A stretch of DNA of 26,178 bases from a virus (Duplodnaviria; Caudoviricetes). Position numbers and translations under genes: made by a program. How positions within the stretch are numbered: position 1 is the first letter of the stretch; the number at the start of each line of letters is the position of its first letter. The stretch lies in the IMG/VR virus record IMGVR_UViG_3300028594_000107, positions 1-26,178 of that record; one strand, given 5' to 3'. The notes beneath the pieces are model-generated. The model did not search any database and was not told where the DNA came from. It saw nothing but the letters and a program-made list of their open reading frames with translations. Shown here piece by piece: positions 9,258 through 23,854 of the stretch.

Positions 9258-10525
9258 GCCGCCCCCATCTGCGCATCACGACGCGCAAAGTCAGTGCTGC
9301 GAGCATCCTCGCGCCGCTTTTGCTCTGGTGTAAGCTGCAGGCCATCTCGTGCCGTCTCAGCGCCGACGACGCCCTGTGCATGTGCTTGCAGTAGGTTCGC
9401 GGACTTAGCCGATGCCGACGACAGTGCTGGATCGCGCCACTGGACCTCGATCACGTCTGCATCGTCAGTGATGCCGCCGATCTGCAGCATGAGCTTTGCC
9501 AGATCCTCTAGCGCATCACCAAACATCGCTTGTTTGACCTCGGCTTTAGCGATCAGACGATCCTTAGCCACGCGCATCGCATCCGCACTCGACGGGTTAT
9601 CCGTAGAGATGCCGAGCATCGATGGCGGGATCCCCGTTATCGACGAGATGACTTGCGCATAGAGCTTGTAGGTGTTGATGATCTGTTGCAGATCGGCACC
9701 GGGAATCTGGCCAGCGGTGGACCCCTCTGGCCCTGTGATGAATTGACCAAAATAGGCTGCGATCTTGTCGATCGGGTTTCCGTTTTGATCTTTCATCTTG
9801 CCTAGACCCTCGCCAAACAGATAACGAGTCGGCATGGCTAACAGCTCTTGTGCGACCTGCAAGTTAGTAAGCGACCGGCTGGCTGCATCGGTCGTCTTGA
9901 TGATCTCTTTGATCTCAGACCGGCCAAACGTATCTTTAAGCCGAGCCTTATTGATCATCGCCACGATCGCCGGCCTATCTGCGCCGGTGGCTTGCGATCG
10001 CCCGTTTTGCTTCCAGATGCCGCTGGCAGGATCCTTGCGATAGAAATCGTTACGCCCTGGCAGATAGTGCACTGCGCCCTCGGTGATGCCATCGTTATAA
10101 ACGTGCACCGCCTCTGCGATCTGTCCAACATGGTCATATCGCACCGAGATCTCTCGTGGTCCATGCGCAGTCACTAACGGCACATCGGATCCGCCGCCTC
10201 GGTTGCCGACCACGAAATAGGCGATGCCCTGCACTAGCGCCTCGACGATGGCCAGCTTGACTGTCGTGTTCAGGTTATTAACCTGCCAGTAACGATGCAG
10301 CGTTTTCGGCAGCTCGGCATTATCGCCTATCCGGTAGCCCTCTGGGTTAAGCGACTCGGCCAGCACATCGACAGCCAGCTTTGGAAACGGTGCCGCCATC
10401 TCTAGGATCCGCGCCTCTGGTGGCAGTGAGATGCCGAGCGCGTCCAGCGATACCTCGCCCTCGTAATACTGATCGTATTTTTTCGATGGCTCTGATCGAG
10501 CATCTAGTAGCTCTTGGAAACTCAT
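9254..10525 (-). CDS. Portal protein (SPP1 gp6-like)
   Basis: QYYEG, PKLAVDVLAE, FGRSEI, NPSSADAMR and VQWRDP motifs; ATGA overlap with the TerL stop. Confidence 0.92.
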   Translation of the reverse strand: MSFQELLDARSEPSKKYDQYYEGEVSLDALGISLPPEARILEMAAPFPKLAVDVLAESLNPEGYRIGDNAELPKTLHRYWQVNNLNTTVKLAIVEALVQGIAYFVVGNRGGGSDVPLVTAHGPREISVRYDHVGQIAEAVHVYNDGITEGAVHYLPGRNDFYRKDPASGIWKQNGRSQATGADRPAIVAMINKARLKDTFGRSEIKEIIKTTDAASRSLTNLQVAQELLAMPTRYLFGEGLGKMKDQNGNPIDKIAAYFGQFITGPEGSTAGQIPGADLQQIINTYKLYAQVISSITGIPPSMLGISTDNPSSADAMRVAKDRLIAKAEVKQAMFGDALEDLAKLMLQIGGITDDADVIEVQWRDPALSSASAKSANLLQAHAQGVVGAETARDGLQLTPEQKRREDARSTDFARRDAQMGAA

Positions 10526-12006
10526 ATAAATACCGTCCATTCGTTCTCTGACTGCTCACGTGCGCCGGCAGTGAGAGCGCGATAGGCGAGCGTTGCTGCC
10601 ACGAGTGGCGAAATGTCTTTCGATGTGTCGTCACGAGTCCAGTTCCAAAGATCTGAGTTACCCTTGGATCTGCGAGATGCCTCGACTGCCTCGGTTAGCT
10701 CGTCTTGTCCGGTGTGCACGATCACGCCGTCGATAATGGCCTCGTAGAACTCGCCACATGCCTGCATATAGTCGCGCCGGTTTAGCGCATTGAGATGCCG
10801 CTTTTGTGATGGATCGGTGCCTGCAACCGATGCCGCCTGCGAGCTGCTGTCGTAATTGACATCGAGTGGATCCCATCGGTTACGCAGTTGCTTGAGTCTC
10901 GGCATAAGCCAATCGGTGCCGGCCCTGCGATCCACGATCTCGATATGGATCAAATCGTCGTCGGTATACGATGCGACAGCCACGGTGCCGACATCGCGCA
11001 TCGGTGTGACATCGAAACCAAAAGCGACTTGCTCGCCGGCCTGTGAATCCTCGTCTTTAGCCTCGGACCAATACTCTGTCGGGATAGCTGACGAGCCGCC
11101 GACTTTCGACCAGATCCCTAGTCGCTCGCGCTTAAATTCTTCATCGTCCATCGACCGTCGCTCGGTCTGGATAAAGTCCTCTGCGATGCGGATCCCTAGC
11201 GACGGGTTAGCTCGTGCCCAATTTTCGGGATCGTCCGGATCGGCATCATCTTCCACCGACCACTCATAATAGGCCAGACGAGTCTCGTCGTCCGGATCCA
11301 GGCCACGATCGCGCACACGATTTAGCACCTCTGACTCTGGCATCCCAGCGCTCGATGCGTACCAGATTTGCGGTGATGCCTCCATAGAGCGAGCCGCCAT
11401 CGTCGGCATCATCGCCGCGATCACCGCATCTGGCAGGTTATAAGCCTCGTCCAGCACCACGAGATCGCCGGTGAAGCCACGGCCAGCGTTACCGCCTGCA
11501 CGCGCTAAAAACTTGATGCGCGAGACTTCTTTGCCCTTGCCATCGACCGTCGTGATCGACATGTCTTGGTTGCCGGTCTTGATGCCGGACATCTTGCCCT
11601 CTGGATCGCCATCGAAGCCCTTAACGCGCTCGACTAGCTCTGGTGTAGTCCGGATCAATCGCTCTAAACGCATCCGGTGCTCGTTCGCAGTCGAGAACAG
11701 ATGCGCGGTGTGGATAATTAGAGGCTCGCGGAATAGAAACAAGCCAGCCAGCTCTCGCGCCTCTAAGATCGCGCCCTTGCCATTCTGTCGAGGCACGATC
11801 AAACCGACCTCGAACGCCTGCCAGCGACCATCTCGACGCTCTCCGAGCGAGCCGCGCAAAACGTGCTGCTGCCAATCGTCCAACTCAAGCCCTGCGACCG
11901 CTGCGAGATCGACTGCATCATCGCCGGCAGTCGTATGAAACAGCGGTGTAACGTCAATTCGCGGACGCTGCGATCCTTGCCTCGCGCTTTGCTGCAAGCT
12001 CGTCAA
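10522..12006 (-). CDS. terL: Terminase large subunit
   Basis: Walker A VPRQNGKG, Walker B GRGFTGDLVVLDEA, WARANPSLG, FKRERLGIW, nuclease FGFDV and DISPLVAATLA. Confidence 0.96.
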   Translation of the reverse strand: MTSLQQSARQGSQRPRIDVTPLFHTTAGDDAVDLAAVAGLELDDWQQHVLRGSLGERRDGRWQAFEVGLIVPRQNGKGAILEARELAGLFLFREPLIIHTAHLFSTANEHRMRLERLIRTTPELVERVKGFDGDPEGKMSGIKTGNQDMSITTVDGKGKEVSRIKFLARAGGNAGRGFTGDLVVLDEAYNLPDAVIAAMMPTMAARSMEASPQIWYASSAGMPESEVLNRVRDRGLDPDDETRLAYYEWSVEDDADPDDPENWARANPSLGIRIAEDFIQTERRSMDDEEFKRERLGIWSKVGGSSAIPTEYWSEAKDEDSQAGEQVAFGFDVTPMRDVGTVAVASYTDDDLIHIEIVDRRAGTDWLMPRLKQLRNRWDPLDVNYDSSSQAASVAGTDPSQKRHLNALNRRDYMQACGEFYEAIIDGVIVHTGQDELTEAVEASRRSKGNSDLWNWTRDDTSKDISPLVAATLAYRALTAGAREQSENEWTVFI

Positions 12007-12415
12007 GTTTGCTCACCTTTTCCTCTTGCTCTTTCGGCTCGGCAAGACGAGAGATCTCGTGCACGATCTCTTGCTCTGCCTTAGCCAGCGGTGCAACATC
12101 ACGAGGACCAGCAACTAACATCGCAGCGCGGACCCTGCGCAGCCGCCATCGAGCCGCCTCTAACTGGCCCTCGAACGTCGGCACATCGACATCCTCGAAC
12201 TCGCCATAAGCCACCAGATGCCGAACAGTCTCGACATCGGCATCGTTGCCCTTAGCTAGTTCGGTGTTGAGTGCATGAGCACCGGACTCGCGCTCGCGCT
12301 GTTCGCGGTTGTACTCACGAGACGCCTCGACACATTCCTCGCAGGGATCCTCTTTATTGCGCAGGTGACGCTTATAGGCAGTCCAGGTGCCACACGGTGC
12401 GAGCTTTCGAGCCAT
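11954..12415 (-). CDS. terS: Terminase small subunit with N-terminal Cys/His motif
   Basis: AAAAGGAGG RBS; C-terminal SKLDELAAKR overlapping the TerL start; N-terminal PCGTWTAYKRH...PCEEC. Confidence 0.75.
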   Translation of the reverse strand: MARKLAPCGTWTAYKRHLRNKEDPCEECVEASREYNREQRERESGAHALNTELAKGNDADVETVRHLVAYGEFEDVDVPTFEGQLEAARWRLRRVRAAMLVAGPRDVAPLAKAEQEIVHEISRLAEPKEQEEKVSKLDELAAKREARIAASAN

Positions 12416-12431
12416 CTGCAGCACCTCCTTT

Positions 12432-12716: not shown

Positions 12717-13007
12717 TCACCATTGTCTCGATGTCTTTGGTTTTGGCACTTGTTCGCTTGTGCGCATCTTGCCTCGTGCTGAGTTGCATCCAAAGTGTGC
12801 AGGTCGCAGCTCTCCGAGTAGCTTGCCGCCGTTACCTAATGGATCCACGTGGTCTGCGCTAAAGCTCTGCGGATGTCGTGGCGGCAGTGTGAGATCGATT
12901 GGCTTGTGACAGAGCCAGCATGGTTGCCCGGTGCGCTCGACGTGCCTGCGTAGTGTTTTGGTTTTCTTGCGATAGGCGTGCGATTCGTATGCGTTACGCA
13001 TGTGCAT
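12717..13007 (-). CDS. HNH endonuclease (packaging-associated)
   Basis: CWLC...SFSADHVDPLGNGG...LRPAHFGCNSARG; adjacent to terS. Confidence 0.9.
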   Translation of the reverse strand: MHMRNAYESHAYRKKTKTLRRHVERTGQPCWLCHKPIDLTLPPRHPQSFSADHVDPLGNGGKLLGELRPAHFGCNSARGKMRTSEQVPKPKTSRQW

Positions 13008-13092: not shown

Positions 13093-13311
13093 TTATCCTG
13101 GCCCTAGCGGGTTATCGCCGTGGTGGTGGCCTGGCCAGATGCCGGTCGCTCTGCGATGTAGGTTCGCGCAGTAGCCCTCGGCTCTGCCTGGCATGTGTTT
13201 GCGTAACTGTCGGACGCATCGCCTAAAGTCGCCGGGGGTGCCCCATCGGATCTTTAGTCCGCCCTCTCCGACTGTCCAGTAGCGTCGTAGTCTTTCCGCG
13301 TTGCCGGCCAT
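13093..13311 (-). CDS. Conserved-looking actinophage hypothetical protein, 72 aa
   Basis: AERLRRYW...KIRWGTPGDFRRCV...GYCANLH...GIWPG; AGGTG RBS. Confidence 0.75.
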   Translation of the reverse strand: MAGNAERLRRYWTVGEGGLKIRWGTPGDFRRCVRQLRKHMPGRAEGYCANLHRRATGIWPGHHHGDNPLGPG

Positions 13312-15146: not shown

Positions 15147-15565
15147 GCGGTGATCTCTCTTGTTCGGTTGCCGAGTTGATCGAGAGTGATCTTGCCGTCT
15201 CGATACTGCTCGTAGTCTTGCGGTGTGAGTTGTCCATTAGCGACGAGGTTGCGCAGGTGCTCGCGCTTGTGCTGCGCGTCTGGCAGCGGTTTACCGTCGT
15301 CGTCGTACTCGTCCGCGTATCGCAGCACCGGGTGCTCGGCTAGTGCCAGTCTGCGAGAGCGCATCGACTTGACTCGTCGGATAATGTGCGCCGGCAGCAG
15401 GTAGTCGGTGGACTCTCGAAAGTGCGCCTCGACTGCTGCGAGGCAGTCTGGCAGTGTGAACTCGTGCAGCATCTTGTGCCAGGCTTTTACGGTGGCCTCG
15501 TCTACGTGCCGCGCATCGTAGATCTGGATCGCGGCCAGCACTTGCGTTGTCTCTGCGTAGTTCAT
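15143..15565 (-). CDS. Helicase loader/inhibitor, SPP1 G39P-like
   Basis: MNYAETTQVLAAI...D.R...AWH...L...AAV..HF...LLPAHI pattern; directly after the replication initiator. Confidence 0.7.
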   Translation of the reverse strand: MNYAETTQVLAAIQIYDARHVDEATVKAWHKMLHEFTLPDCLAAVEAHFRESTDYLLPAHIIRRVKSMRSRRLALAEHPVLRYADEYDDDGKPLPDAQHKREHLRNLVANGQLTPQDYEQYRDGKITLDQLGNRTREITA

Positions 15566-16500
15566 TAGTGGATCTCCTTTTGCTGTTGCTCGTAGCTGGC
15601 CTGCAGCTGTTGTCCTAGCTGCAGGGTGTTGAGTGCTCGTGCGCTGCCGGGTGCCATGCCGTTATGCGGTTGCCGGTTGCGCTGTTGAAACATCCGGTTT
15701 TTGAGTTGATCGAACTGCTTGCGCAGTTTCGCTGCGCTAAGGATGTTGCCCTGCCAAAACTCGTCTTGCTGGCACCAGTCGATGACCTGCCGGATCTGAT
15801 CGGGTGCGTAGCCGTCGATGCGGATCAGACGATCGATGGCTTGCAGCCAGGTCTTGCCGACTGTCGGCTTGCGGTTGCCGTTGCGGACGATCCACTCTGC
15901 GAGGTACTGCGCGAGCCGGTGGACATCATCGGAAAACTCTGGCCCTGTGTCGGCATCGCTCTTTCCGTCGTCGTCGCTTGCGACGTGCGACGAGAGAGTA
16001 TTAACTTCTGTCTCTGTCTCTGTCTCTGTCTCTGCTTTATTCTGGCCCCCCGGCTCGGTTTGCGACTGGCTTTGCGACTTGGAAAGCGACTCGGTTTTAT
16101 TCTTGGTTTGCGATTGGCTTGCAGTGCGCTTAGCGCCTGCCTTGTTGCCTCGGCCTCCTTTGGCACCATTGCGCCGATTGCGCTCTCGACGTGCCTCGAT
16201 CTCTGCCTTGGTTTCCTGCATGTCGGCATATCCGGTTAGCTCGTAGTCGCCGTTGTCGAGTTGAACGAGCGACGGGTGCTCTGGATCGTTGTTCTGCAGC
16301 TCGTGCAACACATCGCTATCCCACTGCAAAGCGAGTCGGTTTGCGACTCGGTTTTTTATGATGCCGTCTGTTTCGTACTTTCGGCAGTACAGAATAAACG
16401 TGATGTGCGCTCGGAAAGCTGCATCTGAGAGCGAGATGATCTTAGGGTGATCTGCGTAGTCGAGTGAGAGCCGTGCAAATAGGGTGCTTTTCTTAGACAT
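15565..16500 (-). CDS. Replication initiator (lambda O-like architecture)
   Basis: N-terminal FARLSLDYADHPKI...LSDAAFR, low-complexity iteron-encoded linker, C-terminal DEFWQGNILSAAKLRKQFDQL resembling the lambda O C-terminus. Confidence 0.8.
   Translation of the reverse strand: MSKKSTLFARLSLDYADHPKIISLSDAAFRAHITFILYCRKYETDGIIKNRVANRLALQWDSDVLHELQNNDPEHPSLVQLDNGDYELTGYADMQETKAEIEARRERNRRNGAKGGRGNKAGAKRTASQSQTKNKTESLSKSQSQSQTEPGGQNKAETETETETEVNTLSSHVASDDDGKSDADTGPEFSDDVHRLAQYLAEWIVRNGNRKPTVGKTWLQAIDRLIRIDGYAPDQIRQVIDWCQQDEFWQGNILSAAKLRKQFDQLKNRMFQQRNRQPHNGMAPGSARALNTLQLGQQLQASYEQQQKEIH
16007..16121. repeat. Putative replication origin: 12-bp iterons plus (TCTCTG)4
   Basis: Six 12-bp-phased units at 16050-16121 (consensus GCGACTNGGTTT) and TCTCTG x4 at 16011-16034, inside the Rep gene. 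Confidence 0.7.
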
Positions 16501-16547
16501 GGTTATCTATCCTTAGTGCGCAGGCACTCGATGTAGTGAGTGCCTGC

Positions 16548-16574
16548 GCATAAAAAACCGCCCTTGCTGGCGGT
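16548..16574 (-). terminator. Intrinsic terminator upstream of Rep
   Basis: ACCGCC...GGCGGT stem then TTTTTATGC. Confidence 0.65.
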
Positions 16575-16602: not shown

Positions 16603-17007
16603 CTATCCGCTTAGCTGCTCGATGCTGGATCCCTCGACGTTTGCTGTCACGAGTCGAGCCATCTGCATCCAGCCCATGTGATCGAGGTAGGCAGCGGACT
16701 CGCGGACTCGTTGCGAGATCAGCACTCGCTTTGCACTGTAGCCTCGCATCGCGTCGATGGATCGTGCGAACACGAGTCGTCCGCCTGATGCGACCTGTAT
16801 GCGCTCGCGCCCGTAGGACTTGATCGCTCGTGTTACCTCTAGCTCTGGTGCAGGCTGGATAGCCTGATGCGCATCGTTACTGATGTCGTCCAGTGCCTCT
16901 AGCATCGTTGTGGCGATGTGCCGCGAGTAGACGCTATCTGCACAGACGAGCACAGTGTGCCCTGCCGCCATGTCTACTGCGACGCCTTGTTGCTCGTAGA
17001 TGTTCAT
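16603..17007 (-). CDS. Hypothetical protein resembling a truncated terminase ATPase core
   Basis: TVLVCA...GRERI...GGRLVFARS...RGYSAKRVLIS parallels TerL IIHTAH...SRIKFLAR...RGFTGDLVVLDE; ATGA overlap, GAGAGG RBS. Confidence 0.6.
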   Translation of the reverse strand: MNIYEQQGVAVDMAAGHTVLVCADSVYSRHIATTMLEALDDISNDAHQAIQPAPELEVTRAIKSYGRERIQVASGGRLVFARSIDAMRGYSAKRVLISQRVRESAAYLDHMGWMQMARLVTANVEGSSIEQLSG

Positions 17008-17312
17008 CGGTGCCTCTCGGTGTGATGGATCGTGCGATGCTTGTCGCTGTTTTTGCGCAGCATTAGATCGGCTCTGCGCTTGCGCTCTATCGGATCGATA
17101 TACTCTGCTACTTTTAGATCGCGCTTAGCTTTTCCGGTGTTGATCTTGCTGTGCTGTGTTTCAAACACGAGCATCATGCGATGCCGGTTGCCCTCTGTCG
17201 GCTGCACGATCTCTCGGTGAGTCTTATCGCCGTATCGTTTGGCCAGCTCTGCAAATTCGATGATGTCTTGCAGCTGTGTGGCCTCGGTTAGTTCTAGTCG
17301 GATCTCTGTCAT
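17004..17312 (-). CDS. Hypothetical protein
   Basis: GAGAGGA RBS, operon context. Confidence 0.7.
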   Translation of the reverse strand: MTEIRLELTEATQLQDIIEFAELAKRYGDKTHREIVQPTEGNRHRMMLVFETQHSKINTGKAKRDLKVAEYIDPIERKRRADLMLRKNSDKHRTIHHTERHR

Positions 17313-17322
17313 GGTTTCCTCT

Positions 17323-17487
17323 CTAGTTGTCCCAAAGTCTGGCTATAAATGCGACGATGGCGATCGTCCATGTGAGTAGTGCTGTCGCTACCCATCGGAT
17401 GTCGTGCCAGATGCCGGCCAGCATCATCACGACGCCTGCGACTGCGAGGATCGTGGTCGCTGTTGTGAGTAGCCTGTCGATGCTCAT
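17323..17487 (-). CDS. 54-aa two-TM membrane protein
   Basis: Not in the ORF track: MSIDRLLTTATTILAVAGVVMMLAGIWHDIRWVATALLTWTIAIVAFIARLWDN; ATGA overlap with the resolvase stop. Confidence 0.7.
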   Translation of the reverse strand: MSIDRLLTTATTILAVAGVVMMLAGIWHDIRWVATALLTWTIAIVAFIARLWDN

Positions 17488-17858
17488 AGTTGCTGCCTCG
17501 GTGTGCCGGTCACGATGGCGATAAAGTCATCGACGGTCGTGATCACCCATTGCTCGCCGGGATCTTGTGTGCCTCGACGTTTAGCGACGACGATGCCTGC
17601 GCCGGCCTCGTCATTCTTTGCTGCCTCGTGTGCCTCTTTGATCCAGGTGCCGGCCTTGATCTGGCCCCCGTAGTCTTTGCACTCGATGGCGATCTTTTGG
17701 TCGAGGTGTTGGACGCCTGCGATGTCTCCTCGATCTTTGGCTCCATATTGGACTCTGCGATCGATGTCCGGTGCGTCGAGTTTGTCTTTTAGGTGGTCTG
17801 CGACTTTGCGCTCTAGACCTCTGCCGGCAGCTTTAGCCGATGCTCTATTCCTCGCCAT
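17484..17858 (-). CDS. Holliday junction resolvase (PD-(D/E)XK, Hjc-like)
   Basis: AKAAGRGLERKVADHL, DRGDIAGV, IAIECKD and VVAKRRG motifs. Confidence 0.85.
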   Translation of the reverse strand: MARNRASAKAAGRGLERKVADHLKDKLDAPDIDRRVQYGAKDRGDIAGVQHLDQKIAIECKDYGGQIKAGTWIKEAHEAAKNDEAGAGIVVAKRRGTQDPGEQWVITTVDDFIAIVTGTPRQQL

Positions 17859-19822: not shown

Positions 19823-19850
19823 GCATAAAAATAGACCGCCTTAGCGGTCT
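19823..19850 (-). terminator. Intrinsic terminator after ssb
   Basis: AGACCGC-TAAG-GCGGTCT stem then ATTTTTATGC. Confidence 0.7.
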
Positions 19851-23824: not shown

Positions 23825-23854
23825 GCATAAAAATAGCCAGGTAAAAACCTGGCT
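23825..23854 (-). terminator. Intrinsic terminator
   Basis: AGCCAGGT-TTTT-ACCTGGCT stem then ATTTTTATGC. Confidence 0.7.

Follow-up and report, generated by a model that had tools for sequence, protein, structure and literature searches.

The locus raises the question of why a phage with an intact large terminase gene (terL) should carry, among its replication genes, a separate 134-residue ORF that resembles the ATPase core of TerL. The window (the whole 26,178-nucleotide stretch that was analysed) is a linear virus record with an estimated completeness of 76%; its genes are siphophage-like and lie nearly all on the minus strand, and its TerL finds matches mostly among actinophage terminases. 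In the order of transcription, a RusA-like resolvase gene is followed by a 54-aa ORF, a 102-aa ORF (17004-17312), the 134-aa ORF (here termed mini-TerL) and a replication initiator gene, after which come a loader-like gene, small ORFs, a phrog_908 gene, an HNH gene, a probable terS, terL and portal-region genes (Table 1). The start codon of mini-TerL overlaps the stop codon of the 102-aa ORF upstream, and the spacer between mini-TerL and the initiator gene, 111 nt long, has a z value of -6.86.

Table 1. Positions of mini-TerL, its motifs and the neighbouring features within the window.
Feature	Position	Strand	Remarks
Mini-TerL ORF (P0001), 134 aa	16603..17007	-	Walker-A helix to motif III strand; without P-loop, lid and nuclease
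Ribosome-binding-like GAGAGG	17013..17018	-	5' of the mini-TerL ORF
Beta-hairpin region, residues 60-76 (RAIKSYGRERIQVASGG)	16780..16830	-	
R88-G89	16741..16746	-	Aligns with T4 gp17 R245-G246
Degenerate Walker B strand KRVLISQ	16711..16731	-	S98-Q99
Terminator-like hairpin and T run	16557..16574	-	Directly 3' of the mini-TerL ORF; consensus match only
Perfect 13-bp inverted repeat	16517..16550		Spacer between the mini-TerL ORF and the replication initiator gene
RusA-like resolvase gene	17484..17858	-	Upstream neighbour; phrog_244, E 1.3e-27
Replication initiator/replisome organiser-like gene	15565..16500	-	Downstream neighbour; phrog_4880, phrog_391
HNH nuclease gene	12717..13007	-	Packaging cassette; the family's usual neighbour elsewhere; phrog_338
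Probable terminase small subunit (terS)	11954..12424	-	phrog_1459, E 0.0012, weak, plus position
Large terminase (terL), intact	10522..12006	-	phrog_9; Walker A RQNGK, Walker B VVLDE

Several other features were seen in the window. Three terminator-like hairpins of the early/middle operon (16557-16574, 19833-19850 and 23835-23854, all on the minus strand) have a common tail, TTTTTATGC, possibly a repeated regulatory or antitermination signal, and short iteron-like repeats inside the initiator gene (four 27-nt copies and TCTGTC runs, at 16007-16113 and 16332-16358) may mark a replication origin. Just upstream of the HNH-terS-terL cassette, a 72-aa ORF (13093-13311, minus strand) matches phrog_6439 (E 1e-29) as well as a small domain within far larger virion/head-maturation proteins (phrog_21406, 18402 and 29860), and is a stand-alone copy of a mobile domain. 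The N-terminal stretch of the probable terS matches WhiB-like regulator families (phrog_12112, E 8e-9). The Walker A motif of the window's TerL (residues 73-79), like that of the TerLs at loci L004, L007, L070, L073 and L075, reads RQNGKG or RQNGKN and lacks the usual Ser/Thr after the Lys.

An earlier note, made from the letters of the window, had taken the ORF for a stand-alone, non-catalytic protein resembling the TerL ATPase, and had named structure prediction as a check. The predicted structure is confident and contains the ASCE ATPase core fold of a terminase rather than an unrelated one, with an alignment that begins at residue 166 of T4 gp17 (residue 48 of D6E). The core from the Walker-A helix to motif III is common to mini-TerL and to the N-terminal ATPase domains of the D6E (5oe8), T4 gp17 (2o0h), P74-26 (4znl) and PhiV-1 gp19 (in 8dgc) terminases, as are the beta-hairpin and, before the Walker B strand, the RG of the TerL ATPase domain (phrog_9; Pfam TerL_ATPase/Terminase_6N). 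Unlike TerL, mini-TerL has no adenine-binding motif, P-loop, catalytic DE, lid or nuclease, and is a separate gene beside an intact terL. The Walker A P-loop is absent from P0001, as the note had read, and from the whole family examined below (0 of 74 sequences); S98-Q99 stand where T4 gp17 has the Walker B Asp and catalytic Glu, D255-E256, again in keeping with that reading; and both the lid subdomain and the C-terminal RNase H-like nuclease are missing, since the ORF stops at the motif III strand and the initiator gene comes next. Because three defining TerL features fail, P0001 is not a terminase; it is a stand-alone fragment of the TerL ATPase core without the ATP-binding loop, encoded by a real, intact gene.

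Pairwise BLASTP of P0001 against its own TerL gave no significant match, scans of mini-TerL with Pfam and with PADLOC each returned 0 families, and tblastn against GenBank phages gave only weak coliphage matches (E of at least 0.8). Searches of PDB sequences yielded nothing under E 0.001, with T4 gp17 at E 1.3; matches to CheY and TraI, likewise not under that value, were judged to be chance.

Profile comparison places P0001 in PHROG 6910 (match over most of its length, E 6e-5), 22 of whose 25 members match the mini-TerL profile. Family members were defined by a profile match over most of their length, a size of 100-155 aa, an MNxY start and a G16/G66/G76/RG pattern, all of which P0001 shows. 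A representative search gave 28 matches, 23 of them short proteins; the long P0006, P0010, P0017 and P0024 together with P0031 matched in several stretches and were excluded ahead of the alignment, leaving the 23, and these representatives together with genome and phage loci make up a set of 74 distinct sequences of 102-155 aa. Across the 74, all discrete intact ORFs, there is a fixed new N terminus (MNRY) and a set of conserved glycines, while the Walker B Asp is kept in 41 and the catalytic Glu in nine. The hosts of these phages are Mycobacterium, Gordonia, Arthrobacter and Microbacterium, and named members include Corndog gp5, Catdawg gp4, BetterKatz gp4, Bauer gp2, Orcanus gp1, Elva gp30 and Whytu gp21. 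SEA-PHAGES records call them hypothetical proteins, with a few labelled "ASCE ATPase", "AAA-ATPase", "DNA helicase" or "DNA binding protein"; as a P-loop occurs in none of the 74, the ATPase and helicase labels need correcting. Neither the family nor a terminase decoy was found described in the open-access literature. In one actinobacterial order the gene is present in 7 of 401 genomes, and 16 of 23 matching genomes showed frames of TerL length only (11 candidates were scored per genome), which marks mini-TerL as an accessory gene; no longer, fused form occurred among 7999 candidates, which is weak evidence. Published proteomics (PMC4351075) records 19 peptides of Corndog gp5 in once-banded particles and none in twice-banded particles or infected-cell extract, and 30 peptides of Catdawg gp4 in lysate; in those data, two relatives of mini-TerL are shown to be expressed as protein and absent from purified virions. 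Mini-TerLs are thus an old, widespread and unnamed actinophage family of P-loop-less TerL fragments.

The same note had aligned the ORF with the ATPase core of the phage's own TerL; derivation from that terL was not supported. Against the window's mini-TerL, the window's own TerL core ranks only 26th of 27, and in a quick tree built on few columns all 40 minis fall on one side of a branch from the 27 TerL cores (SH-aLRT 93). Grouping by tree and this rank point to an old family rather than a local duplication. A recent duplication of the phage's own terL was accordingly rejected, as was a split terL. Within the tree the window's protein lies in a divergent subclade (six rows) with a 12-15 residue insertion and a Ser in place of the Walker B Asp.

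Across the family, distances between minis correlate little with those between their own TerLs (Mantel r 0.14, p 0.085, n=27), and the mean rank of a mini's own TerL, 11.4, is slightly better than the 14 of chance, so that there may be a weak link between the two. In 23 pairs of loci whose TerL cores are at least 90% identical, the minis are 21-81% identical (41-81% without the L007/L070 pair, at 21%, for which one of the two minis of L070 was used), and minis 74-78% identical occur with TerL cores that are 54% identical. Minis therefore change much faster than their TerLs and track them loosely. Their dN/dS (0.14-0.96) is below 1 in all 15 pairs and exceeds that of terL in 10 of 10; the adjacent HNH gene has values similar to the mini's in five of seven pairs, indicating that fast change is not peculiar to the mini. 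In Cluster O phages two mini alleles of about 46% identity alternate at one locus, with Ryadel carrying both, and G183 carries a divergent tandem pair.

A survey of homolog contexts, which had also been suggested, covered 41 distinct loci, 35 of which have enough flank for a count of positions (L013, L036, L038, L039, L040 and L042 being left out for short flank). In 27 of the 35 the mini lies within 3 kb upstream of terL on the same strand, Whytu being counted across its genome ends; in three, the window among them, the distance is 4.6-5.1 kb, in line with the roughly 4.6 kb already noted for this phage, and in five the gene lies elsewhere relative to terL. These loci are not independent, as seven have TerL cores at least 90% identical and the seeds favoured one subfamily, mostly of the MNRY type. 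The usual gene order is HNH, mini, in some loci a ParB-methyltransferase gene, terS and terL, with an HNH gene no more than three genes from the mini in 17 of 27 loci whose neighbours were partly scanned. HNH genes adjacent to terminase have a packaging role. Minis also sit in other operons, in Cluster O, in Elva (after a Cas4-family exonuclease gene) and in the window, and away from the packaging cassette there is no conservation of the adjoining genes. No neighbourhood for the window's own subclade was found in viral, genome or metagenome collections, so that the survey answers for other subfamilies. The description of the protein as early-made accordingly suits the window copy, Elva and possibly Cluster O, and fails as a trait of the family, most of which belongs to the packaging cassette. 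Two further arrangements were seen: at L020 a member (10001-10345) lies 8 kb downstream of terL, with the major tail protein gene on one side and genes for tail assembly chaperones on the other, and at L012, L017, L018, L029, L030 and L031 a gene of 430-475 aa separates the mini from terS-terL, which in the two scanned (L012 and L017) encodes a ParB-DNA methyltransferase fusion.

Terminase is a universal trigger for the defence sensors Avs1-3 and Upx. In the Avs2-trypsin structure (bioRxiv 10.64898/2026.08.25.746987), the TPR domain is reported to grip TerL at R162 and Q163, at the Walker A loop and by way of two ATPs, of which one contacts E256, and mutations of the ATP contacts reduce activation; the C-terminal domain of Avs2 contacts E227, D242, R245, N247, Q271, S275 and S276. 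All 17 terminase residues named in that report fit T4 gp17 numbering, which allows the interface to be laid over mini-TerL. Six ATP-binding contacts (Q138, R140, Q143, R162, Q163 and G165) precede its start, K166-T167 fall at its first residues, and the E256 position is a Gln in P0001. The contacts of the C-terminal domain, from E227 to S276, fall inside the retained stretch, and only R245 (R88) of the seven is strongly kept (66 of 74); the E227 position is Glu or Asp in 41 of 74 minis and Gln in P0001, N247, Q271, S275 and S276 are not kept, and the alignment of D242 is ambiguous. EcAvs2 is reported to use a bridging ATP likewise, and Upx has been modelled to bind strands 1, 4, 5 and 6 of the ATPase (PMC13601566). 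Mini-TerL is without the strand that precedes the P-loop, which would be the Upx-bound strand 1.

We favour, at a probability of about 0.35, the reading that mini-TerL is a non-activating decoy for terminase-sensing defence of the Avs2, Avs3 or Upx type. Avs2 would grip TerL on two faces, the TPR face (P-loop and two ATPs) and the C-terminal face (residues 227-276); because the mini retains the region of the second face but has no means of binding the first ATP, it would fill the Avs2 pocket while the latch that drives tetramerisation stays open, and would so occupy sensors while real terminase is made. Encoded immediately ahead of terS-terL, the mini would be made together with TerL or sooner, the window copy, moved into the replication operon, would be supplied earlier still, and fast change together with allele swapping may reflect pressure from varied sensors. 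The idea of a decoy had been put forward in the earlier note and is plausible, and better grounded than before, judging from the absence of the ATP-binding parts onto which Avs2 latches and from the occurrence of Avs2 and Avs3 in actinobacteria. As a precedent for such rivalry, DSAD1, an inhibitor of DSR2, is reported to compete with the tail tube, the trigger, at the sensor pocket (PMC11087589); sensor and trigger differ there, and the role of DSAD1 is experimentally shown whereas that of mini-TerL is predicted.

The main objection to a decoy is that published small TerL-like proteins activate Avs2. Ksap1 and Ksap2, described as KpAvs2-stimulating proteins (PMC11564622), T4 vs.8 and isolated ATPase domains are all reported to activate Avs2, Ksap1 and Ksap2 being predicted to do so mainly through its C-terminal sensor (PMC11564622, PMC13601566), and Upx is reported to be still activated by most catalytically dead TerLs (PMC13601566). 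As the small or partial TerL-like proteins that were tested switch Avs2 on, a mimic of the core could be a liability. Ksap2, like mini-TerL, is a small stand-alone TerL-like protein, and the gene of T4 vs.8 is likewise small and separate and shows homology to the TerL ATPase; its co-expression with EcAvs2 is reported to activate that sensor (PMC13601566). Unlike the mini, vs.8 is 219 aa long and has both Walker A (RQSGKS) and Walker B (IIDE) intact, and it scores only 6.1 bits against the family profile and so lies outside the family. What small terminase-like proteins do for the phage is described as an open question in PMC13601566. The record of T4 gene 17 (L102) lists in-frame internal products, another phage route to truncated forms of terminase. 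Against a decoy, too, the conservation of R245 is equally explained by an arginine finger or a structural residue, closeness to terL may record only the site of an ancient duplication, and Avs sensors are rare in the genome sample: within the actinobacterial order 1 of 301 genomes carries Avs2 and 2 of 301 carry Avs3a, and within the class 6 of 401 carry Avs2. These matches all score under the NCBIfam cut-offs; PADLOC names all seven Avs2 proteins and the one Avs3a protein scanned. Avs2 was not found in 10 mini-carrying genomes, which is uninformative at an Avs2 frequency of about 1%. At one locus (L080, 4527-9449, G216:C1) the Avs2 frame appears to resemble the sensor only up to about residue 1200; it overlaps an ORF of 532 aa on the opposite strand and is possibly interrupted by an insertion.

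A doubtful alternative, though the one that survives best, is that mini-TerL acts on terminase itself as a pseudo-subunit, binding a TerL monomer at its ATP face by means of the retained arginine-finger surface and, without an ATP site of its own, capping growth of the ring. If the phage's own TerL were the target, the mini would set the timing of cos cleavage or of packaging, or would keep TerL out of reach of sensors until assembly; if the target were the TerL of a competitor or satellite, it would poison packaging. The place of most minis within the HNH-terS-terL cassette suits this idea, as do retention of the gene even in the 15-kb phage Whytu and the conserved R88-G89: an Arg equivalent to R88 is present in all 27 TerLs as well as in most minis and is, from its position, likely the equivalent of R139 of P74-26, the arginine finger reported to act in trans and to take part in contacts between subunits (bioRxiv 10.1101/080440). 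The D6E-type arginine that follows Walker B, by comparison, is not kept in the family, and a partner of terminase is hard to square with a protein that does not track its own TerL, is missing from 16 of the 23 matching genomes and has been relocated to different operons in Cluster O phages, in Elva and in the window.

It is unlikely that mini-TerL is a co-opted DNA-binding or adaptor protein unrelated to packaging or immunity and, in the window, an accessory to the operon for replication/recombination. In favour, DNA binding is reported to need no more of TerL than the ATPase domain with its basic patch; against, P74-26 TerL is reported to grip DNA tightly only in its ATP-bound state (bioRxiv 10.1101/080440). 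In the hairpin region the family keeps G66 in 74 of 74, G76 in 71, E68 in 63, R63 in 58 and R60 in 36, and the arginines could serve such a role; P0001 itself has K63 and Y65 where the family has R and N, and a net charge of -2 (family median 0). The window copy between RusA-like and initiator genes and the Elva copy after an exonuclease gene speak for this reading, against which stand the unconserved neighbours beyond the packaging cassette.

Less probable again is an anti-defence or host-takeover protein aimed at some other ATPase-dependent host target, which sensors of the Avs2 type may recognise incidentally, in the way proposed for Ksap1/2 and vs.8; the possibility is raised for the known non-terminase activators (PMC13601566) and fits an accessory, fast-evolving, allele-swapping gene, while context and the empty PADLOC scan point to no such target and the link to terL would go unexplained. 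A functionless remnant of a duplicated terL, which patchy occurrence and a dN/dS of 0.80-0.96 in 3 of 15 pairs might suggest, is very improbable and already disfavoured by conservation, given the single family in the tree, intact ORFs with a fixed N terminus and glycines, a dN/dS of 0.14-0.43 in the closest pairs, the protein detected for two members (PMC4351075) and the confident predicted fold.

Extended to the family, the decoy reading becomes more tentative: actinophages would carry a widespread family of terminase-derived decoys without precisely those ATP-holding elements that serve Avs2/Avs3 as a latch, made alongside terL, swapped as alleles and neutralising terminase-sensing immunity. 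If true, the viral protein that is sensed would itself have supplied the material for an anti-defence protein. The family is in any case a direct test set, comprising many natural variants without the ATP latch in cultured phages (Corndog, Bauer, Orcanus, Elva and BetterKatz) whose laboratory hosts are non-pathogenic. Should minis inhibit the sensors, a class of decoy would be defined and the ATP bridge shown to separate binding from activation; should they activate them, they would be a large added class of non-terminase triggers; and should they affect TerL, they would be an unrecognised packaging accessory.
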